DNA of 64,000 nt from Bugula neritina (Eukaryota > Animalia > Bryozoa), in the NCBI GenBank assembly GCA_964035545.1, contig OZ037766.1:1550001-1614000 (forward strand), read 5' to 3'. Below the pieces are notes generated by a model, which saw nothing but the letters and a program-made list of their open reading frames with translations, ran no database searches and was not told the origin of the DNA. Positions 18,570-64,000 of this stretch are shown here, one piece after another (position 1 is the stretch's first letter; each line of letters begins with the position of its first letter). Made by a program: the position numbers and the translations under genes.

Positions 18570-19200
18570 AAAACCACATAAAACTAGATATGTAGCAAAA
18601 GGATACTGACAAATACAATGAGTTGACTATGATGAAACGTACAGTCCAACCACCAGATTTACATCGATCAGATTGCTGTTACAGAAAGCAGCAAAATAAA
18701 AACAAGAAGATACATCAACGAGATGTTAAAGAGGCGTACCTAAACACGCCAATCAATAAGGAAACCTACCTACAACAGCCTGAAGAGTACAAAGAAACCA
18801 GCAACCAAGGGAAGCTTTCTTGGCGTCCCAACAGATCCATATATATGGCCTCAAACAGAGCAGATGCAATTGGCACCAAACACTTACCACTTTCCTCAAG
18901 GAACAAGGCTTCACACCTGGTGCCGGAGACCCTTGTCTATACTCAAAACAGGACCTTTCAGACCTTGTGCAAAACATTCAAGATAAAACAGAATAACCCT
19001 AACACAGTTTTCACCAACAACCTTGGAGCCATTGCCCTCACTAAGGGACAACCATACTTATAAAAGAGGAGCAAACACATTGACATTAGATTCCACATTG
19101 TCAGAGAGCAAACCACCATAGTATACCAACACATTAGAGGAGCGGAGAACCCTGCCAATGTCATGACTAAGAGCTTGCCTAAAACCAATCACAGAATTGC
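18570..19200 (+). pseudogene. Degenerate, internally deleted Copia reverse transcriptase and RNase H remnant
   Basis: Fragments KTRYVAKGY*Q...VDYDETYSPT, IHQRDVKEAYLNTPINKETYLQQPEEY, SIY-GLKQS-R-W, DPCLY and KRSKHIDIRFHIVRE...ENPANVMTKSL, broken by stops and frameshifts. Confidence 0.9.
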
Positions 19201-28100: not shown

Positions 28101-30972
28101 ACACGGTTGAGTAGAGAAAAACAATGGGTGAAAACCCTGAGGTATATTACACTTCAGTTATTACGTACTGCCTATAGTTATTGATCAGTTGTATACAATA
28201 GGCGTGTGTGTTGACAACAATGGCCCTTAGTTACTGCGTAGTATATACTAAATATTTTGTAGTGCTTAACAATAGAATGCAGAAAATATCACAGCATAGC
28301 AAAATTAGTAAATTTCTTTTCAAATGTTTACCGGAAATAAAAAACAAAATCTAGGTTTTAGCTTTAATTAAGAAAGAATTTATTTTGTATTTATTACTAT
28401 TTCAAATTTTTTAAAAGTGGTCTAATTAATTTGATAGTGAAATAGTAACTGGAAAAAATTGATTTTTTATTATTTGAGACAAGGAGTTGAAAAGGAAACA
28501 ATGTATATAGTTTATGATTTCATGCTAGAAGAAATCTCATTACTTTAGTCTCAGGCCTGTTAATTGAGGTGAATATTTGGGACATTTAAAATCTTGGTGA
28601 CACGAAGAATTTAATCCTTTAAGCTAATATTAGAGTAGTATAATATGTGAATTAATGTGCATAGTATGTTGATTACTTGGTTATGATGCAATATAGTATA
28701 GACATACTATTTAACATTTGTTTAAATGTTAAATAAACTGCCATCTCCTCCCTGAACTATGTTACTGTTGCTATGGTTACCAGTGTTGACTGACACTCTA
28801 ACTTATGCTTGTAGCGCCGCCTAGAAGAGCTGAGCCCAAGGCTGAACCAAAGGTAGTGTACAACATTCACTTCTCTAATGCAATTAAAGCCATTCACAAA
28901 GTTCAAATTTTAAATGAGTTTCAACAATAAGTTTTTTTCTAGCTGAAAACTTTTTAAAGACATGGTATTGTATTTTTAAGTTGTTTTTAAAGAAAACTAC
29001 AGATGCTTGATTAAAATAATTATAGAATTTTTATGCAGATTACTTCTAAACCTTTGCAGTGTTTTGCTTTAGCAATTGTTCTAAAATCATCAAGTTTTCC
29101 ATCCCTAAATTTTATAAGAAGCTTCCATTTTAAAAACTTTGTTATTTTCTCTCAAAATTGTGACACTACATCACAATAATCTGTGTGAAAGTCAGCTAAT
29201 GATAAGGGTGCCTTTGCATCCCCCCTCCCCCCCCCCCCCGTACATTCTATTCCCTTATGATACGTAGGAGGAGAAAGGAGATGATGAAACAAAACAGCAA
29301 AGAGAGTCCTACCCAATCAGTTTTCAAGATACGCATCCAGTGTCGCCCATTGAAGAGAAGAAAACTCCATCTAGCACAACGGTTGGTGCCCAGGAAGAGA
29401 GTAAAAAGGCTCAAGGTAAGGTTTGTCACACTGTGTTTTAAATGAATATAATTTTCATTTGGTTGCTATGGGTTACTTTGATTGTTTGTAATGTTTCTAC
29501 AGATGTGCAATTCAGAGAGGCAGGGTCTCCTTTAGGGAGTCCTAGACGTGCTGACATAGCTGACGGTGAAGAAAATACTAGATCTCGTCATTCCAGTCCA
29601 AAACCTGAAGACACACCAAGGGCTGACACCCCGAAGGTAGAAGACACACCAAGGGCTGACACCCCGAAGGTAGAAGATACACCAAGGGCCGACACCCCGA
29701 AGGTAGAAGATACACCAAGGGCTGACACCCCGAAGGTAGAAGACACACCAAGGGCTGACACCCCGAAAACCGAAGACACACCAAGGGCTGACACCCCAAA
29801 AGTAGAAGAAACTCCAAGGGCTGACACCCCGAAGGTAGAAGATACACCAAGGGCCGACACCCCGAAGGTAGAAGATACACCAAGGGCTGACACCTCAAAA
29901 GTAGAAGACACTCCAAGGGCTGACACTCCAAAAGTAGAAGACACTCCAAGGGCTGACACCCCGAAGGTAGAAGACACACCAAGGGCCGACACCCCGAAGG
30001 TAGAAGATACACCAAGGGTTGACACCCCAAAAGTAGAAGATACTCCAAGGGCTGACACCCCAAAAGTAGAAGATACTCCAAGGGCTGACACCCCAAAAGT
30101 AGAGGACACACCAAGGGCTGACACTCCAAAAGCCGAGGAAACACCTAGGGCTGACACCCCAAAAGTAGAAGAAACACCAAGGGCTGACACCCCAAAAGTA
30201 GAAGAAACACCAAGGGCTGACACCCCAAAAGTAGAGGACACACCGAGGGCTGACACCCCGAAAGTAGAAGAAACACCAAGGGCCGACACCCCAAAAGTAG
30301 AAGACACTCCAAAGGCTGACACCCCGAAGGTAGAAGATACTCCAAGGGCCGACACCCCAAAAGCTGAAGACACACCAAGGGCTGACACCCCAAAAGCAGA
30401 TGAAAACACAAGTGAACATAATCCTACAAATGAAACTGCTAATTCCGTAGCAGATGGGAAAGAGGTGAGTAAGAATTCAGGCTAGTTTACTGTGAAATGG
30501 GACTCTATAGTGGTACCACCGAGTGAGCTTAGTGTATTGTTAGAGGATCATTTGGCGTGACTAGAACATACTAAATTGAGTTTCACGTGATCTCTAAAGT
30601 AACATCTTACTTAGCTCAAGCTTTTCTCTGTTGAGTAATTTGTCAGGTCTATATTTAGGTTTCAGTGCAAGTAGTTATTAGCGGAAAGTAAATTAAATTT
30701 TTTTAATACACTTAGAGCCAGCTTGTTTATGCTGCCTGATTTTTAAACCAACTCTTCATAGGAGAACTTAAACTGGCAGCAATTCATATAATTCAATATT
30801 TTGAAATTATCGAGCATATTTTGCGTAAATTAAACATTATTTAATAATAATGTTCGTAAATTAGCCATTTCTTGCATGAGAATTCAAATATCGTGTTTAA
30901 TAATGTACTTTTGTTTGTTGACAGGATAACATCAATACAGCAAATTCCCAAGCAGTTCCAGTCACATCCCAG
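22170..30972 (+). CDS. DCDC2: Doublecortin domain-containing protein 2-like (two DCX domains plus a long low-complexity tail); terminal exon uncertain (possibly ~31570)
   Basis: Exons 22170-22456, 23122-23185, 24648-24709, 24817-24948, 25205-25354, 25669-25713, 27689-27750, 28815-28852, 29268-29415, 29503-30464, 30925-30972 are phase-compatible. DCX1: KTIHVYRNGDLFF...FGAVRHL...YVAYG. DCX2: VYANGQPF...WDNVLEQI...GAIRRLY...YYVATGSEKFK. Confidence 0.85.
29607..30399 (+). repeat. Coding 33-bp minisatellite, ~24 x E(D/E)TPRADTPKV
   Basis: Direct count in exon 29503-30464; units differ mainly at synonymous positions. Confidence 0.95.
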
Positions 30973-32448: not shown

Positions 32449-52941
<20,493 letters not shown>

Positions 52942-55003
52942 ATCTTATTCTTTAACAAACTCACATTTCACATGTTCTACCAATAAATTTCACAAATGGG
53001 AGACTACATCCTAAAACAATGAAATTAACAATTTATTCAAAAATTCAAAATAAAAACAGCAAATAAATGTAAAAATCTTGCAACAAAATTTGCTAGCATA
53101 TCTTTTTAGTTTCAAACATGAAATCATACATTAAACTCAAGTCTGTTTAAAGTTGCTGTCTATATGTGAAGTCTTAATTTGCAGGCTAAAAACTATGCCT
53201 TTTGCCATGCTGGCCACATGATTTTGATAGTTTCTGCATAAAGCACAGGGGCAATTATGACTGAACGTTGTTTATGACATCACCAATAGCCTTGCAGGAA
53301 TTCAAATTTTGCTTACTAGGTCAGCAGATTAACTAGACCACCGTAGCGGTACTGATTATCCTGACGACAATGTGTAGATGTACCAATGTTTAAATTACAT
53401 GGTGAATAAATTGAGTCACCTTTACAATAAACACCATTGTGGGTGTTGCACCGGACCCAATCTTATCCAATCAAATATCAGAGAAGTCATATATATTAAA
53501 CTGAAACTCATTCTTAAACTCACAAAAATCTGTATTTCATTTCAATTCTTTTACAATTGCAATTGAATAAAACCTGAACTGAAACAAAAGACGTCAAATG
53601 TTTTGTTAAAATTAGTTGAAATTAACATTTTGATTTTAAATAATTTCAACTTCTACAAAATTAATAACAATAATGAATTATGAATAAATTAAAATATCAC
53701 AATAATTACAATAGCTATGGCTACAGGCTACAACCTTAACTAAACAAATATTCTTATACTTATAGTTTTATTTCCAAGTTTAACTGTCTGTATAAGTATC
53801 TGTATTAGTATATCACTATAAGCTCAAGTATACTAATAATTTTATTCATAAATATAATCATAATGTCAATATTAATAATAATAAATTCTAATTTACTGAT
53901 TATCATTATTATAATAACCTTGAAGATAATCATTATCCTAATGTTAATAATAATGATAATGTAAATTAAATATTAAAGTTTAAATTAACATAAACACCTA
54001 GGGCTAGCGGGCTAGTAAGTAGTACTAGTACCAGTTAGTAGTACTAATATTAATAATAGTTATACTAAGTCTAATAGATAATAGCATTTATTTTGATCTT
54101 ACACTTGCAGTTGAAGTTCAATTTCACTTTCACTTTGAGTTAGAGTCAAAGAGTGCAAAAAATAACTTCAACTTAAACTAGGTTTCAAAGTTAAAAATAA
54201 AATTAAATGATCTTAAATTTAATAATTGTCATCCTTCATTTTTAATTTTATGGTTAATAGATGATAATTAATTTTAAAGCCGGAAATTTATATCGTTTAA
54301 AAATAGTTAAATTATTTTATTTGTATAATTGTTTTTGGCATGAGATCAAAACGAAAATGGTTTAGGTTATTTTGTTTTAACACCTTTGCTGGATCAGGTG
54401 TTGCACGATCTTTAGCGAAAAGAGGCTCGATACAAAGCAGGAAATGTCAAAGCGAAACCGAAACTTATTTAACGTTTCTAAAGCCACAGACCTATCGACT
54501 TTTACTATATTATATTAGTTAAAATGAGAGGATTGTGATTAATCTCTTCCGCAACCTTGGTCGTGCCAGATTATTGCAGTGTGGTATATTAAGAGTGTTG
54601 ACTTTAAACCATGAAAAATCATTATGTCGCTAATGGTACCGCGAGTTTATATAAGTTATAAAGGAAAAATTTTGCCACTTTTGTGATTTTATTTTTTTTT
54701 TATATTATGTGTCCATTTTTTTTAGTTTTGTTTATTGGTAAAGTTTTTAAACATATTTTCAATACATATAAAATTTTAAAAATAATTAAAACTTAATCAT
54801 GCACGTAAATACAAAGCTATAAAGTTTAAGCTTCGCTGTGATTACAATGTGAATATGAATTGAATAATGCTTGCAATAACCATTTTACACAAAATACGTT
54901 ACAGTTGCTATAAATGTAAGACTAGTAAATTGGATGCAAATAGGCACGGTAATACTATTTAATTTATGCTATTTTTGAAATTTGTAGTAAATATTCGGCA
55001 TGT

Positions 55004-55690
55004 TGCTATAGATGTATTCAAGTATTATTTCATACTTGACATTTTGTATGCTATACCACTACAATATAATATACTACAGATATAGCATCCTGCTTCCCTG
55101 CAACCTTAGTTAGAGCTTAATATTGTTTTGTATTGAATACTTCCATGTATTCTATCTTTTCCCCATTTATAATATATCTTTTCTTCCATACATAGTGTAT
55201 GCCTACTATATAGAATAGCAGTAACATTAAATAGACACACACTTACAAGGTTATACACCATGATACAGGACATACAACTAATTATTGGAGATGGTACAAC
55301 ATTAGCCCTAAAAGTATACTTCCACATATATGATGTTTCGCAACAGGACTTCTAGCCTAAGGATTATAGCACTTCGCTCTTTAGCTATAAGATACTTATC
55401 ACTTTCGTACCCTTACCTTTTATGTTGAGTGACGGAGCTCTGGCTACAAGAAGTAAGCAGTGAGAGAACCTTCTATCTAAACGTGGCAGCTTTGGTACAG
55501 GATTCCAGATCTCTTGTACACTAGAGTCCGTCGTAAGCAGATGTGACTGAAGAGAAGAATAATACCGGTAAGTGTGATACCAACTATCAACGCGTTATAG
55601 TTATACACATGTAGAATATTCTAATTGTATGCATACCCTGTGTTATATTAGGTACTTAGTAGTTGAAAACCCCCAGTACTCAATATAACA
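55004..55690 (+). repeat. 5' LTR (687 bp)
   Basis: Direct repeat of 62040-62726; the ORF track shows the same 73-aa minus-strand ORF in both copies. Confidence 0.97.
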
Positions 55691-55693
55691 TTT

Positions 55694-55708
55694 TGGAGGA
55701 GGCACTGG
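55694..55708 (+). promoter_or_regulatory. Primer-binding site TGGAGGAGGCACTGG (closest to a tRNA-Cys 3' end)
   Basis: TGG starts 3 nt after the LTR end; the first 12 nt differ at one position from TGGAGGGGGCAC, the complement of a typical eukaryotic tRNA-Cys 3' end. The tRNA assignment is tentative. Confidence 0.55.
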
Positions 55709-56808
55709 CTTTTGCCCAAGGTTGCCCTTGTTAAATATTGTGTCCAGCTTTATATTAATAGCTCTTGACACTTGGTTAACCACCCGTGCGCCAGGGGATA
55801 AAATTATATTGATACTTTAAATAGTGTTGATCAGGCCTCATTTGGCTGTTCACTAATATTTTCCTGTAGGTTTTATATTCGCTGAGCTCATATTTTGCTC
55901 GTGGGTAGACCGTAGAAGTGCTAGGCCGCACTGAGAAAATATTAATTGAAGCCAAAAAGGATCAACTTTTACATATTACCCCAAAACAATATACATCCAC
56001 AGACTAATAGTAATAGAGCGAGAATTCCTATATGTTTAATTTTTCTCTGCTGCTTAAAAGGTGAAAACAAGCCAGTTTTAATTTTTTTAGCCTAGAGATA
56101 ATTAATTGTAGAAGTGAATTACCTCCCTTTGCTAATAGGCTAATTTAGTTGTATAATTGGGTGAGCTGCAGATAAGGTTAACACGCTCCTTATTTAGCAG
56201 TTAATAAATTCCAAACAGATTCAGTCTACGACTGTCTGCTGAGGTATAGGCGCTGACAAGTACTATAATTAATAGTCTTGTCCTAAACATAATTTCTTAT
56301 AATTATCTACAATTTACTTTGCAGTGCATTGCCAATCAGAGCATCACTGAATTGTATATTATATATTTACATATTATACGAATAATACATTGCAGTACTA
56401 AGTATTGCAACACCTGCAGTGCAATCAGTGTATTATAGTACAAAGCATTGTCCTATTACGTATTATAGTACCTAAGTACAACAACTGCCTTACCACATAG
56501 TACGAATAATAAACTAATTAATTACTGTGGTTGACTAAATTTAAATTTTAGACTAGGCTTGAATAGCAGAAATAACTGAATAATTTGTAGTGTACAGAGG
56601 TCATAATAAAGGACTTCCACTAACTTAAAGTACTTAGCTGCAAGCCACACCTTGTCATATATACAGAATAGTACATGCACACATATCCTTGAGTAAGAAA
56701 TAGACACATAATTGTACATTAGCACAAAGTATAAACATTAATAACATTGCAAACAAGTACTGCTGAACTCACTTATTAGTTGGAAATTATAAGTCACGCA
56801 CCAACAAT

Positions 56809-59325
56809 ATGAGCACCGGAACCGTGACCACCGCCACAACTACAGTCACCACTAGTGTTAGTACTATTACGACACCAGGTAGTGCCACAAATGTAGCCAC
56901 GGGCTTAGACACTCCTACTCTCTCACAAGATTCGACAAGAGAAGGAGCTCACGCATTGGTTGAGTTGTCCGAAAGACGACTCCCGATGAACCCGCATGAA
57001 ATTGCAAGATTCTACGAGTTAGAATACAAGAAACTTGTAGAGGAGCAGGAAAAGCAAAAGGATGTATGGAGATATGAGCAAGAGCAATGGCGACAGTATC
57101 AACAAACGAAAGAGCATGAACTGGCGGAACAGTTTCAGCGCCTCGAGGTAGAAAGACAAGAGCAAGCAAGGAGACGGTTCGAGATAGAGGAAAGTTTTGA
57201 AATCCAACGGAGAAAGTTCTATGAGGAACAGAGCGCTGTCCAAGAACAACAGCAAAATGAGTTTCTGGAAAGAGAGCATCGGCTCACAATCCAGCAACAA
57301 AAGTTACAACAACAACTTGAAGATTTTCGGAATCTCACCTTGGGTCAAAGATCTACCAATGATGCAAATGTCATGCCGGAACCAACTCCGCCACCTCGAA
57401 CTCGCCTACCTCCACCAGTTACGCCACGGAAAACAAGTAGAAGGCAACTTCACGAACAACCAGCACCTACACCTACAAATACTACCTTGGAATTCACATC
57501 AAGTTATCCCCACATTGCTAATCAACAATCACCAAAACCTCATAACTCACCAATCCAAAGCTTAGCTGAAACACCATCTGAACACAGCATTGGAGTAGCT
57601 GATGCGAGAAAATTTCACAACTCACCTATTATTCTGAGAGAGCCTCCACAGAACATCAAATTTAAAGGAACTCCTGGTTCCAGCTGGGAGTTATTTCTTG
57701 AAAAATGGGAAAAGAACATAAAAAAACTGCAGCTTAGTGATTATCAGATGGCACAAAACCTTTCAGATGCCCTGGAAGGTGGTGCCTATCAGGTTTTCAA
57801 GGCAGTAGTTGCAAAGGAGCCCACGCTAGCGATTAGTTACAAGAGTCTTCGAGAGAGGTTGTGCAAAGAGTTTGTCGACTCAAGCAAATTAGTGTGGAAC
57901 ATAAAGATGGGGAAGAAAAGCGTACTAGAATATTATGGCGAATTTATGGAAGCTGCCAACACCCAATGGCCTGACCTATCCCTTGAACATAAAGATAGCG
58001 TGCTAGTATCTGCTTTTATTACTGGTCTACGACCAGGATTGAAGAGGCACCTCCTCTCTAAAAACCCCACAACTGTAGAAAGTGCTAGGAAACTTGCACT
58101 TAAGCAAGAAAATGTAGAACATCAGATGGGAGATGACACCCAGAAAATAGTGGCAACAGTAAACTCATCTGACTCAGTTCAAAAGCTAGAAAAAGAGGTA
58201 GAATGGTTGAAAACTTTAGTGCACAACCAAGCTAAAGAGCAACGGCAGCCCCAATACCAACAGCACCAACAACAGAGTCAAGGGTTTGGAATGAGAAATG
58301 ACAGAGGTAGAGGTGGTGGATGGAGAGGAACAACAAACCGAGGAAGAGGACGAGGTAGATACTTCAACCAGGGGAAGCCTCAACCCTACTACCAATCTTC
58401 TCCCCGGTACCCTCACCCACCAGCACAACTTCCTTCCTGCCCACCTCAACCACCCTCTCACCAGCAACCACAACGTAATCAGTGCTCTGGTCAACAGAGC
58501 AAAACCAAAGATTACAGTGGGACGCGACACATCAATGCTATTGAGAGCCTGGAGGGTGATGAATTTGCTGAGGCCCTTCTGACTCAGCCTCCTCAAGATG
58601 ACATAGCTGAGGAATCAGTGAATTCAATTCAAACCTCTCCAAATGAATTCATCTCTGACAGGAAACCCAAAAGAAAAAGAAGCAGAGGACGGGGGACTGG
58701 TTTGTCAACAATGCAAACCTACATGTTGGCACTAGTGGCAATGTGTATGCTGATCAGTGTAGCCGCAGCCACTGCACCAGTAAAAGGCACAGCTCTCCTG
58801 GGGCCAGCGTTGGCCAGTCAGACTCTCACCAGCATACTATCTGTGTTAGTGTTGACAGCAGTAGTGAATGCATTGTCTAACACGACTGTTTTTAACACTA
58901 CACAGAAGGCACAGCCGCAGTATGCCAGGTATCCTTTGGTGTGTAGTTCCAGTGAAGTGAGGCGACCATCTATTCATCAATTGAATCATGACTTCCAATG
59001 TGATCCGACTCCAAGACCCAATAGTACTCATGCGCCAACCCCTGTGAAGGCTACGGTTTACAGAAAAAATGTAGTGGAATGGCGTACAGCAGCCTATCAA
59101 TGCACTAAAATGCTGTACACCATCTCCACACAAATATCACTTTTTACGGACGTGAAAACTAAGAAGGAATCTCACCGGTCACTGCCAGTTAGCCGCAGCG
59201 AATGCGAAAATATGGTACTAGAGAAGAGATGCAATGAAGGTGCCCTATCTGGAAGTGATGGTGCATACACTACAAAAAAACAAAGCTGCAGGATTAGCTT
59301 ATGTTTGGTGCTGCAAGTGGCATGA
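56809..59325 (+). CDS. gag: Gag (coiled coil, Ty3/Gypsy-type capsid, RG-rich nucleocapsid-like region) fused in frame to hydrophobic signal/TM segments and the N-terminal part of the envelope glycoprotein
   Basis: Capsid ~57661-58110: FKG...WELFLEKWE...LEGGAYQVF...YKSLRERLCKEF...SVLEYYGEF...FITGLRPGLK...NPTTVESARKLA. Then RGRGGGWRG...RGRGRGR, basic RKPKRKRSRGR, hydrophobic MLALVAMCMLISVAAA and LTSILSVLVLTAVVNA, and a Cys-rich sequence with N-x-T sequons. Confidence 0.88.
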   Translation: MSTGTVTTATTTVTTSVSTITTPGSATNVATGLDTPTLSQDSTREGAHALVELSERRLPMNPHEIARFYELEYKKLVEEQEKQKDVWRYEQEQWRQYQQTKEHELAEQFQRLEVERQEQARRRFEIEESFEIQRRKFYEEQSAVQEQQQNEFLEREHRLTIQQQKLQQQLEDFRNLTLGQRSTNDANVMPEPTPPPRTRLPPPVTPRKTSRRQLHEQPAPTPTNTTLEFTSSYPHIANQQSPKPHNSPIQSLAETPSEHSIGVADARKFHNSPIILREPPQNIKFKGTPGSSWELFLEKWEKNIKKLQLSDYQMAQNLSDALEGGAYQVFKAVVAKEPTLAISYKSLRERLCKEFVDSSKLVWNIKMGKKSVLEYYGEFMEAANTQWPDLSLEHKDSVLVSAFITGLRPGLKRHLLSKNPTTVESARKLALKQENVEHQMGDDTQKIVATVNSSDSVQKLEKEVEWLKTLVHNQAKEQRQPQYQQHQQQSQGFGMRNDRGRGGGWRGTTNRGRGRGRYFNQGKPQPYYQSSPRYPHPPAQLPSCPPQPPSHQQPQRNQCSGQQSKTKDYSGTRHINAIESLEGDEFAEALLTQPPQDDIAEESVNSIQTSPNEFISDRKPKRKRSRGRGTGLSTMQTYMLALVAMCMLISVAAATAPVKGTALLGPALASQTLTSILSVLVLTAVVNALSNTTVFNTTQKAQPQYARYPLVCSSSEVRRPSIHQLNHDFQCDPTPRPNSTHAPTPVKATVYRKNVVEWRTAAYQCTKMLYTISTQISLFTDVKTKKESHRSLPVSRSECENMVLEKRCNEGALSGSDGAYTTKKQSCRISLCLVLQVA

Positions 59326-60823
59326 CTTTGAAGTGAAACAATGCAGTTATATTTCGGCTTCGGTATACAAGACATTTGGGAAAAGTTCTTTTGAAAGCAC
59401 CGCAGGTGACGTTTCCCATTGCAACTCATACTCTGATGGCTACTGCAAACTCAGAGATCAATCTATGCTGATATGGGAAACAGAACGAGAAGCTAATTGT
59501 CCATACGAGGAGTGGTATGAAGTTGAAGGAAGTTTCCTTGATGGCTATTTTGTTAGTGATCAAGAAGACTTGGCTTTAACTTTCCGCAAGAACCCCTTTG
59601 AGAATATTACCACTTGTGACGGCAAGTCAGGCACAATGTCGGACCAAGGTTTGCTTGTTGTTTTTAATACTTCAGACCTGTTCAACACCACTCTAACGCA
59701 ACACGTTGAAAAGGCTCCTGGACTAGAATGGGACCGCAGGAGTCGTTTGAGTCCAGCATATGCTGTCATGGACGCTATAGCTCAGTCCCTAGAAGTACAG
59801 ATTCTCGGAATCGAATCAAAACTGTATTGGACATCTTATCAATATACCTGTAAAAACATAGTTCAAGTCCTCAAAACCGTAGCTCTACTCGCAGAGCAAC
59901 ATGCGACGAGTACAGCCAGATACTTACTAGGGGTAAGCAATATCCGAGCTGAGTCTGGTCCTGGTTTTCTAAAGATTTACCCATGTACGGAAATAAAAAG
60001 CTACAAAATGCTCCCTATGCCAGAGAATAATTGCACCATGTTTATTCCAGTGGAATTGGAACTCAGTGGGGAAACGCACACTGGTTTCATGGATCCGATG
60101 GATAACATTATTCACACACAAAGTGCACAAGCACCGTGCACATCCAAATCAGCAATTGCATTCCGGATGAACGATGAATTGTTTTGGTATAACCAAGATG
60201 GTACCGTAGAAAAGGTTAATCTTGGAGAAGACCTGAGTTTACCTGGAATTTCTCTAGGTGCACACCCTCTTAAAATCCATGAAACAATCTACAGCCGTGC
60301 CCATCACTTAAGTTGGCCTGACCTGTCAGCACACTCTGACTTGAATGAATTGCTAGCTACTTTGTCAAGACAGAAACAAGTTTTAGAAGCAATGGGAATT
60401 CAATCCAACAGACATGTTTCCTTTAAAAACAATGTCATTGAGTCGAAAGAAAACTTGATAGGGAACTCTTGGTTTGCTTTCCTGTTTGGAGGGCATGTGG
60501 CGAGTGCATTCGAATTGTGGACTTTGATATCCAACTGTTTAGTCACCATATTGTCAATTGCATTGCTAGGTAATTTCCTATATAATCGTTGTTGCCAGCG
60601 AAGGAGAAATATTGTAGCAGCTATCGACATTGAGGACACAGAGAACACATCTGACAATGATGTTGAGGCAGGAGAACAGGATGGGTTCCTGGACGCTTCC
60701 GATCAGACTAGCTTCACAGAATTCGTAGATATGGTAGAGGTGGACACTAGACCAACCCCTAGTGCTCCTTCGCCTGCATCTTCAATTCAGCAATATCGCC
60801 CCCTCTATCCGAAACTGCAATGA
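59234..60823 (+). CDS. env: Remainder of the envelope glycoprotein (class III fusion protein, herpes gB/chuvirus G-like), continuing ORF1 across a +1 break at the A7 run 59274-59280
   Basis: C-x2-Y-x2-G-x-C...IW...CPY module; RRSR furin-type site (59735-59746); long helix followed by ATSTARYLLG...AESGPGFLKIYPC and C-x3-P...TGFMDPMDNII...PC, which parallels the gB domain III/IV pattern; C-terminal TM ~60512-60583 followed by CCQRRR. Confidence 0.8.
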   Translation: MKVPYLEVMVHTLQKNKAAGLAYVWCCKWHDFEVKQCSYISASVYKTFGKSSFESTAGDVSHCNSYSDGYCKLRDQSMLIWETEREANCPYEEWYEVEGSFLDGYFVSDQEDLALTFRKNPFENITTCDGKSGTMSDQGLLVVFNTSDLFNTTLTQHVEKAPGLEWDRRSRLSPAYAVMDAIAQSLEVQILGIESKLYWTSYQYTCKNIVQVLKTVALLAEQHATSTARYLLGVSNIRAESGPGFLKIYPCTEIKSYKMLPMPENNCTMFIPVELELSGETHTGFMDPMDNIIHTQSAQAPCTSKSAIAFRMNDELFWYNQDGTVEKVNLGEDLSLPGISLGAHPLKIHETIYSRAHHLSWPDLSAHSDLNELLATLSRQKQVLEAMGIQSNRHVSFKNNVIESKENLIGNSWFAFLFGGHVASAFELWTLISNCLVTILSIALLGNFLYNRCCQRRRNIVAAIDIEDTENTSDNDVEAGEQDGFLDASDQTSFTEFVDMVEVDTRPTPSAPSPASSIQQYRPLYPKLQ

Positions 60824-61330
60824 CTAGAAGCCGACACACCCAGTACTAGTAGCCGCATTGAAATAGTAGCAGGAATAAATGGTAGTCAATGTAGGAGTGC
60901 ATTAATTGATATCAAAATAGCAGGAAAACCGTATCAAGCATTAGCTGATGCCGGGGCTACGGTGACACTGATGCGCTCTGACATTGCTAAAAGATTGAGT
61001 CTACCATTATATTCAGGTACCTTGACTGCAAAAGGGGTTAACAGCTCTAAGCTTCATATAATAGGACGCACGGCCGCTGAGATTACAATTGGATCAAAAA
61101 TGTTTAAGCAGTGTTTTCATGTAGCTGATGATATTGGCCATGAGGTACTGCTTGGAACTGATTTTCTTAGCAAGCTGGGTGATGTCACCTACAATTTTGC
61201 AAAAGGAGAGTTTCGTTTCTCTGGCGAAACTCTACCCATGGGAGAAACCAACGCACTAACTACTTTTAAAATAAGAACTGTGAATGCAGCCATACCACCA
61301 TATTCTCACCCGATTCATTACTTTACATAA
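60824..61330 (+). CDS. pro: Retroviral-type aspartic protease (retropepsin), in frame with env behind a single UGA
   Basis: Open from 60824 with no ATG upstream of the active site: ...ALIDIKIAGKPYQALADAGATVTLM...AKGVN...IIG...FHV...VLLGTDFL. Confidence 0.85.
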   Translation, partial: LEADTPSTSSRIEIVAGINGSQCRSALIDIKIAGKPYQALADAGATVTLMRSDIAKRLSLPLYSGTLTAKGVNSSKLHIIGRTAAEITIGSKMFKQCFHVADDIGHEVLLGTDFLSKLGDVTYNFAKGEFRFSGETLPMGETNALTTFKIRTVNAAIPPYSHPIHYFT

Positions 61331-62027
61331 TCATGCAGATATACCAGATATACTAATATTTACTGCCATATTAATAATCAAGTTTTTCAACGGAACACAG
61401 GAGTTTTCCTGTTGTACACAGGGGGAGTACTTTAACATTTTTTCAGCATTACAGGTTAACATCTTCTACAGTTTTGGCTTCTTATAAAACAAACTTACTA
61501 AAAATTTCAGAAATCAAATTGACTTTTGATTAAAATAAAATTAAGTAAGCTCTGTATTGGGAAAATTGAATCAAATCAAACGGAATTTTTAAATATTCAA
61601 AGTTGGATAAAATGCGGAGTCGATTGTTATCACCACCTCCTGTGACTTATGTTTATAATATTCATAATTAGTGTATTTTTAGTAAATGTTTACTTATAGC
61701 TAAAGTCTTGTTTTTTTATTTTATCAACAGATAAAGTTCATCAAAAAAAAAATAATGAAAATATGGTTACAAAAAAAGGGAACAATGTAAGAAATGAGTG
61801 AAAAAAAAAAAAGATTATGTGACCAGAAATAAAAAAAAAAATACTCACTCTAATCGATGAACTCACTAGTACTAATAGAATACATATATACAACAGCTAG
61901 TATATATAATTTTCAAATTTTACTCATTTTATTGTGAAAGATTTTTCTTCCTTTTTTATTTCGGAGTAGTAATGCTTAATTGTTTATGCTTTCAACAAGC
62001 ATAAGCCACCGGAGGTGTCTTTCTCTA

Positions 62028-62039
62028 AATTGGGGAGGA
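62028..62039 (+). promoter_or_regulatory. Polypurine tract
   Basis: aattggggagga abuts the TG of the 3' LTR. Confidence 0.75.
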
Positions 62040-62726
62040 TGCTATAGATGTATTCAAGTATTATTTCATACTTGACATTTTGTATGCTATACCACTACAA
62101 TATAATATACTACAGATATAGCATCCTGCTTCCCTGCAACCTTAGTTAGAGCTTAATATTGTTTTGTATTGAATACTTCCATGTATTCTATCTTTTCCCC
62201 ATTTATAATATATCTTTTCTTCCATACATAGTGTATGCCTACTATATAGAATAGCAGTAACATTAAATAGACACACACTTACAAGGTTATACACCATGAT
62301 ACAGGACATACAACTAATTATTGGAGATGGTACAACATTAGCCCTAAAAGTATACTTCCACATATATGATGTTTCGCAACAGGACTTCTAGCCTAAGGAT
62401 TATAGCACTTCGCTCTTTAGCTATAAGATACTTATCACTTTCGTACCCTTACCTTTTATGTTGAGTGACGGAGCTCTGGCTACAAGAAGTAAGCAGTGAG
62501 AGAACCTTCTATCTAAACGTGGCAGCTTTGGTACAGGATTCCAGATCTCTTGTACACTAGAGTCCGTCGTAAGCAGATGTGACTGAAGAGAAGAATAATA
62601 CCGGTAAGTGTGATACCAACTATCAACGCGTTATAGTTATACACATGTAGAATATTCTAATTGTATGCATACCCTGTGTTATATTAGGTACTTAGTAGTT
62701 GAAAACCCCCAGTACTCAATATAACA
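62040..62726 (+). repeat. 3' LTR (687 bp)
   Basis: Direct repeat of 55004-55690. Confidence 0.97.
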
Positions 62727-62729
62727 ATG

Positions 62730-63921
<1,192 letters not shown>

Positions 63922-64000
63922 GCCAAATATTTACTACAAAATTCAAAAATAGCATAAATTAAGTAGTATTAACGTGCCTATTTGCATCCAATTAACTAGT

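Follow-up and report, generated by a model that had tools for sequence, protein, structure and literature searches.

In the 64,000-nucleotide (nt) stretch of Bugula neritina DNA analysed here (contig OZ037766.1; hereafter the window, whose numbering is used throughout), a Ty3/gypsy retroelement with long terminal repeats (LTRs) occupies positions 55004-62726, and its envelope gene (env) ends in a UGA codon behind which the protease continues in the same frame. From comparison with related Gag-Env-Pol Ty3/gypsy elements, we consider it likely that this junction, CAA-UGA-C, is a site of programmed stop-codon readthrough into Pol. The stop, its flanking nucleotides and the frame of pol are shared by all six families in which the junction can be read, and the 3′ contexts correspond to known readthrough signals. 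The window copy itself is a case of ordinary decay and adds little; its relatives carry the argument.

A conserved stop codon between Env and Pol

The junction in the window (60818-60827, plus strand) reads CTG CAA TGA CTA GAA GCC, with the TGA at 60821-60823 and 168 open codons following in the same frame (60824-61330, plus strand), exactly as had been described in a first-pass annotation of this DNA. The post-stop frame matches aspartic protease families (PF13975, E 8.5e-13), and the statement that no ATG precedes the active site also holds, since the catalytic DAGA (60947-60958) is codon 42 and the first Met codon 50. The heptamer TGACTAG by itself proves nothing, seven copies being found on the plus strand of the window and one on the minus strand; its placement and its retention in relatives are what go beyond chance.

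A scan of metagenome contigs yielded 14 related loci (L001-L014), of which L014 stops short of the junction and was left out. CAA-TGA-C is present in all 13 loci that reach the junction, which belong to five families, or six with that of the window. What follows differs by family: CAA TGA CGC in L001, L002 and L013, CAA TGA CAA TCA in L003-L006, CAA TGA CTA TAT in L007 and L008 and again in L009, a separate family and sister of L007, and CAA TGA CAA CCA in L010-L012, of which L012 has a shifted frame in its env tail but keeps the junction of L010. By family, the 3′ context is UGA-CUA in three of six, UGA-CGC in one and the hexanucleotide CARYYA in two. The tetranucleotide CUAG follows the stop only in the window's family, so that what is conserved is CAA-UGA-C and not the UGA-CUAG named in the first-pass annotation. 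Within the window's own family, 60821-60827 is unchanged in run X1 (7/7 variant places) and in record 25 of X3 (10/10 differences).

The reading frame is conserved as well. In the relatives, gag and env form a single frame that is closed by one in-frame UGA. Pol lies in the frame of the stop in 6/6 families and measures 1289-1312 codons in the seven loci with a complete pol. Its order, protease, reverse transcriptase, RNase H, integrase (PR-RT-RH-IN), was found in all three loci scanned (L003, L009 and L010) and also in the protein P0012, and the gene order gag, env, pol is found both in the window, where pol consists of PR only, and in the relatives. A conserved stop with pol in frame in every family bears out the earlier suggestion that the layout is evolved rather than accidental. 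No Met stands before the protease active site in five of the six families, L003 having one six codons ahead of it.

The Env proteins of the six families are 40-62% identical, and the fourfold degenerate sites are saturated in all 15 env pairs (identity 0.18-0.34 between families). CAA accounts for 1.1-3.0% of codons and for 28-69% of Gln codons (product over the six families about 0.004, calculated by hand), C-initial codons for 18-21% of codons, and CARYYA for 0.1-0.5% of codon pairs, yet the latter is placed directly 3′ of the stop in two of the six families. Because CAA-TGA-C has been kept despite the saturation of fourfold sites, and because CAA and CARYYA are scarce, selection acts, on the evidence of these alignments, on the nucleotides around the stop.

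Judged by their letters, the 3′ contexts of all six families are known readthrough contexts. UGA-CUA and UGA-CGG are classed as type II signals and CARYYA as type I, which works after UGA too (PMC3542737); UGACGC occurs in two alphaviruses, and Venezuelan equine encephalitis virus has CAA-UGA-CGG (PMC13517186). A type II UGA-CUA is found in the window, in L007/L008 and in L009, the UGA-CGC of the L001 family is the listed alphavirus variant, and a type I CARYYA follows the UGA in L003-L006 and L010-L012 and is absent from the window. A 3′ structure is described as only conditionally needed for UGA-CUA (PMC13517186), and for UGA-CUAG about 12 nt of 3′ sequence were needed and no structure, CARYYA giving about 15% in the same reporter (PMC4132726). 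In the parts of the two sources covered here, type I is said to be absent from animal viruses in one (PMC13517186) and is listed for Providence virus in the other (PMC3542737). The type III signal (UAG plus purine) is not matched, the stop being UGA followed by C in 6/6 families; pseudoknots were not searched for.

The resemblance to type I and II systems extends to the identity of the stop, the 3′ context, the frequent 5′ CAA, the enzyme encoded downstream and the replacement of the stop by a sense codon in some lineages. As far as those systems are described in the sources used, the present elements differ in that both classes alternate at one homologous site, that no shared extended stem-loop was found and that the upstream protein is a membrane glycoprotein. 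The parallel with gammaretroviruses drawn in the first-pass annotation is a loose one: as in the Gag-Pol of gammaretroviruses and epsilonretroviruses, an in-frame stop precedes the enzymes and would fix how much protease and polymerase is made per unit of structural protein. However, those viruses are described as using UAG plus a purine with a pseudoknot or stem-loop directly after Gag (UAG-G plus pseudoknot in gammaretroviruses; PMC3542737), whereas the present junctions have UGA-C and no such structure was found.

The position of the stop can also be followed among proteins. Word searches returned 13 and 14 long homologues (17 distinct), and the best 150 of 813 matches of a profile search were considered; proteins ending 50-180 residues past the membrane anchor were counted as Env-ending, P0009, which ends just past the anchor, being left out. 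A C-terminal Gln is found in 10 of the 16 close and in 17 of the 39 Env-ending homologues overall, versus a background of 4.6%, these Gln-ending homologues being known from proteins alone, with their DNA unseen. In five proteins the C-terminus lies no more than 45 residues from the protease, and three of these (P0016, P0080 and P0125) have Gln as the last residue; 13 continue without a stop into RT or integrase, namely P0012 and 12 that are more distant. The P0012 lineage (three cluster members) is a Gag-Env-Pol without the stop, and a Gag-Env-Pol fusion protein can therefore exist.

In a quick tree of 33 hand-picked rows, built with no clade test and with long, unreliable outer branches, the Env-then-Gln forms are scattered across one clade of 18 rows (support 98), and the protease-then-Gln forms are its sister clade of three rows (98), with the open P0012 nested beside an Env-Gln form (99). 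From this we infer a post-Env stop that would be old in its clade and would have been lost in P0012. An equivalent stop may stand after the protease in the sister clade, which could also consist of enzyme-less families. The earlier claim that the ancestral gag/pol recoding point lay downstream of env finds no confirmation here, since frames of the sister clade end after the protease and distant relatives are open into RT.

Proposed mechanism and its rivals

Under programmed readthrough, a single RNA would serve for all products. Most ribosomes would make Gag-signal peptide-Env and halt at the UGA, giving Gag and Env at 1:1, and signal peptidase would separate the two. A minority would pass the UGA and continue from the cytoplasmic tail of Env into protease, RT, RNase H and integrase, driven by the local sequence alone (5′ CAA with 3′ CUA, CGC or CARYYA), at a level which, by analogy with reporter data, may range from a few percent up to about 15-30%. 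Pol would then be made on the cytosolic side, attached to the Env tail, and the protease would release it at a hydrophobic site 10-17 codons past the stop. With the Env tail facing inwards, to the cytosol, and Gag removed by cleavage at the signal peptide, the partner of Pol would be Env rather than Gag.

Several observations weigh against this interpretation. Being related, the six families do not count as six separate origins; a single metagenome collection supplied all loci, the viral and prokaryote contig collections having yielded no relatives; and several other divergent contigs of the window's family give no information on the stop. Among the 16 close Env-ending homologues, six have a different last residue (F, H, Y, S, E and S, at the protein level only). 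Folding of the 150 nt after the stop disclosed no shared 3′ stimulatory structure in 6/6 families (z −1.64 to +0.93, the window −0.09); at 230 nt, for which all six families were folded with a cruder shuffle, L007 alone stands out (z −4.15; its sister L009 +1.54, the window −0.70), and the stimulatory stem-loop that the first-pass annotation had proposed to look for did not appear as a structure common to the families. Silent-site conservation past the stop between L007 and L009 (9/14 versus 0.45 overall) shows no clear excess and lies outside the top 10 of 159 scan windows. A similar gag-UGA-pol junction, that of Tca2, gave no readthrough in a reporter (PMC2194720).

In L007 (3785-3990) a long stable hairpin resembling alphavirus stimulators is predicted from about 18 nt 3′ of the stop; it is not predicted in L009.

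A different origin of Pol would be a spliced RNA in which gag is joined to an acceptor just past the stop and env is removed, yielding an ordinary Gag-Pol, with TGAC as the branch point. TGAC does resemble a branch-point core, insect errantiviruses express env by splicing, a YAG lies 4-40 nt from the stop in 6/6 families, and a good donor-like site of matching phase is found upstream of env in both L001 and L003. However, acceptor positions and phases vary by family with no pyrimidine tract (T 5-29%), L010 is without a donor-like site and the donor of L001 falls inside the signal-peptide region, and a splice-site scan of the six families found no consistent donor/acceptor pair. Splicing would also leave CAA, CARYYA and the shared frame unexplained, and two X11 contigs, which are RNA only by guess, span the junction without a joint, a weak hint in the same direction; we regard splicing as improbable. 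Among the 19 runs listed none is on record as an RNA run, which has no bearing on expression. Slightly less probable again is a separate translation of Pol, either from an RNA started at an internal promoter or by initiation downstream of the stop, at a non-AUG codon or internally. It could draw on the near-cognate ATA, ATT and ATC codons that precede the active site in 6/6 families, and the comparable junction of Tca2 is described as containing a minor promoter (PMC2194720). Neither the frame match with env nor CAA-UGA-C would be required for it, though, and the near-cognate triplets encode Ile within conserved protein motifs, at positions that vary; P0012 is a plain fusion.

The UGA might also be bypassed by A-to-I editing or by a dedicated suppressor tRNA, for which the context would be less important. 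Such a bypass would likewise keep the frame and the UGA, and a long hairpin can form near the stop in L007, but no double-stranded structure over the stop is shared, the contexts fit ribosomal readthrough motifs exactly and the long frames contain no internal TGA, which makes it very improbable. Another rival is that the TGA arose by chance, as a nonsense mutation in a once continuous Gag-Env-Pol frame now in decay. The window copy does have other defects, and P0012 and the 12 more distant proteins have Gag-Env-Pol frames without a stop. This reading is nevertheless refuted by the conservation check that the first-pass annotation had called for: the stop and its context are the same in 13/13 loci and 6/6 families with silent sites saturated, and none of the 45 listed members of three clusters extends beyond the Env tail. 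Programmed readthrough after Env, the prediction made in that annotation, remains the best explanation for a stop and context kept in 6/6 families.

Two further candidates were rejected. Frames −1 and +1 close 0-57 codons after the stop while frame 0 is open, which disposes of a frameshift at the junction, and a host code in which UGA is simply read as sense is discounted by the single UGA in frames of more than 2000 codons.

A wider proposal joins these elements to the features of Env described below, and we hold it to be plausible but somewhat more doubtful than credible. It would have a Gag-Env polyprotein split at the signal peptide, a Pol made only as a readthrough extension of the Env tail, with no Gag-Pol, and an Env tail, in place of Gag, that carries late-domain motifs and a protease-type site behind the anchor. 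The CAA-stop would act as a movable throttle, placed after Env, placed after the protease in the sister clade, or lost, with swaps between types I and II at one site; such an assembly logic would be undescribed for retroelements.

Env, its tail and comparison with known elements

The Env of the relative L001 was modelled from 60 sequences with a mean pLDDT (predicted local distance difference test) of 82.8; an earlier model from six sequences (pLDDT 40.9) was not used. According to this model, L001 Env has a class III fold like that of herpesvirus glycoprotein B (gB). Its best PDB matches are herpesvirus gB (E 2e-18) with TM-scores (template modelling scores) of only 0.27-0.46, low values that would be expected for a hinged class III protein, and its best match among viral models is a Nyavirus glycoprotein (E 2.5e-27). 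A sequence search of the PDB with Env gave nothing relevant.

Motifs that we take to be late-domain motifs from their sequence, P[ST]AP (10), PPxY (7) or YPxL (14), occur in 18 of 20 Env tails, the 20 rows being related sequences, while shuffled tails had a mean of 0.2-0.6 and a maximum of 4. A hydrophobic motif of the [VI]-A-x-[VI] type is present in Gag, just behind the Env anchor (9/14 proteins, with a loose pattern) and 10-17 codons after the stop, and would be a putative protease site. In P0002, a segment with this motif is found in three tandem copies between Gag and the signal peptide (aa 575-680).

The P0016 cluster (23 members) has Gag-Env-protease in one frame of 1393 aa that ends in Gln-Gln right behind the protease; this family may have shifted the readthrough stop to the 3′ side of the protease, or else it has no RT. 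P0003, P0004, P0007, P0008, P0011, P0014 and P0076 share a terminal [FW]P[ST][YFL], several of them ending in a residue other than Gln, and their junctions may use another recoding route.

The stop after Env, as the first-pass annotation had placed it, is confirmed. The Gag-Env-Pol layout to which it belongs has already been published: GAG-ENV-POL errantiviruses with an ENV of the herpes simplex virus/gB type are reported from Bryozoa, Nematoda and Platyhelminthes (Chary and Hayashi, eLife, PMC13524379). These share with the present elements an env placed between gag and pol, the Ty3/gypsy order of the pol domains, the gB-type Env and the LTRs. Three bryozoan Env rows, Cpal_errantivirus_4 to 6 (Supplementary file 2, PMC13524379), have motifs in common with the present proteins, as compared by eye and unaligned, a possible sign of membership in the bryozoan C2b Env group. 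In its covered parts, the main text of PMC13524379 mentions no readthrough or frameshift, does not discuss pol expression and describes no fused Gag-Env. The window copy, unlike the published elements, is without RT and integrase. Nematode endogenous retroviruses (NERVs; Sacco et al. 2022, J Gen Virol, doi 10.1099/jgv.0.001739) also have env before pol, as cited in PMC13524379. Among elements with a single in-frame stop, SIRE1, a soybean Ty1/copia element, is described as having stop suppression that leads from pol to env, the reverse of the present order (cited in PMC2829016), and Tca2, an LTR retrotransposon with no env, has a gag-UGA-pol stop whose junction alone failed to drive readthrough (PMC2194720).

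A literature search, with subscription journals and Repbase-type annotations outside its scope, found no report of readthrough from env into pol. Within that scope the combination and the position of the signal are unreported, the layout and the signal classes being already known; also new are the Gln-terminal end that is found after Env in one clade, after the protease in its sister clade and lost in P0012, and the late-domain-like motifs of the Env tails. NERVs are said to have a nyamivirus-like glycoprotein, which resembles the best match of the L001 Env model, and reportedly a continuous gag-env-pro-pol frame without a stop, which may bear on this novelty.

Readthrough after Env suggests, in a form open to testing, how Gag-Env-Pol retroelements could limit the supply of their enzymes although env lies in the middle of the genome. 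If it is true, Pol would be tied to the tail of a membrane glycoprotein and not to the capsid, and the packaging of enzymes into particles would have to differ. The families also provide a natural series of contexts at one homologous site (CUAG, CUAU, CGC, two CARYYA forms and a sense codon), and place a motif of plant-virus type, CARYYA as in tobacco mosaic virus, in animal retroelements.

The window copy and its surroundings

The Ty3/gypsy LTR hallmarks are present in the window. On the plus strand, a 5′ LTR of 687 nt with TG...CA ends (55004-55690), a stretch resembling a primer-binding site that starts with TGG (55694-55705; assigned by its position), a polypurine tract (62032-62039) and a 3′ LTR of 687 nt (62040-62726) are flanked by a 4-nt target-site duplication, ATGT (55000-55003, repeated at 62727-62730). 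Because the two LTRs are 100% identical (blastn), the element is a very recent insertion. It is enclosed, together with an AT-rich microsatellite behind it, by an inverted repeat of at least 83 nt (94%; 54921-55003 and 63918-64000), and may have inserted in a repeat resembling a miniature inverted-repeat transposable element (MITE).

All coding features of the element lie on the plus strand. One frame (56809-59325), broken near its 3′ end, holds gag with a capsid domain (PF03732, about 57769-58035), the hydrophobic segments at the Gag/Env boundary and the N-terminal part of env. The CCHC zinc knuckle of the relative P0001 is not recognisable in the Gag of the window copy (about 58480-58530). 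Two segments resembling signal peptides in a hydropathy scan, with that presumed role, lie at 58726-58866; P0001 has the same tandem hydrophobic pair between Gag and Env at aa 669-718, and most families have one such segment. The rest of env, tail and stop included, follows at 59222-60823 and, going by the fold of L001, would encode a class III fusion protein of gB/nyamivirus type with a membrane anchor at about 60497-60590 and the late-domain-like motifs PSAP (60758-60769) and YPKL, of the YPxL form (60806-60817), in its tail. The upstream frame scores 26 bits (E 2.8e-06) against PF24664 (Monjiviricetes_fusion), for which the cut-off is 27; P0001 passes with 28.6.

The window copy is a defective derivative and not an intact three-gene element. 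Its gag-env frame is broken between 59222 and 59325, and because contigs of all four compared runs differ from the window there, the break is, as far as these contigs tell, private to this copy or to its assembly. Ribosomes from the gag start would halt at 59323-59325, ahead of the signal, unless the break is an assembly error. Only PR is kept after the stop, RT, RNase H and integrase being absent: similarity to the pol of relatives ends at about 61305, next to an internal deletion point (61286-61305) at which contigs of other runs also stop matching, with the match lost on both sides. Since these enzymes are missing, we infer that the copy moved in trans, and since its env frame is broken as well, its readthrough signal is probably idle.

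Elsewhere in the window, host exons lie on the minus strand (34888-35409 and 50292-52639), one with a PX domain, among many minisatellites in AT-rich introns; we take the gene to resemble a class II PI3-kinase-type gene. A plus-strand frame of 347 codons (29442-30485) has a hydrophobic N-terminus and repeats an 11-residue unit (33 nt) about 24 times; it had no Pfam match and may be only a minisatellite. Finally, positions 18596-19063 on the plus strand hold part of a reverse transcriptase of the Ty1/copia type (RVT_2, below cut-off).
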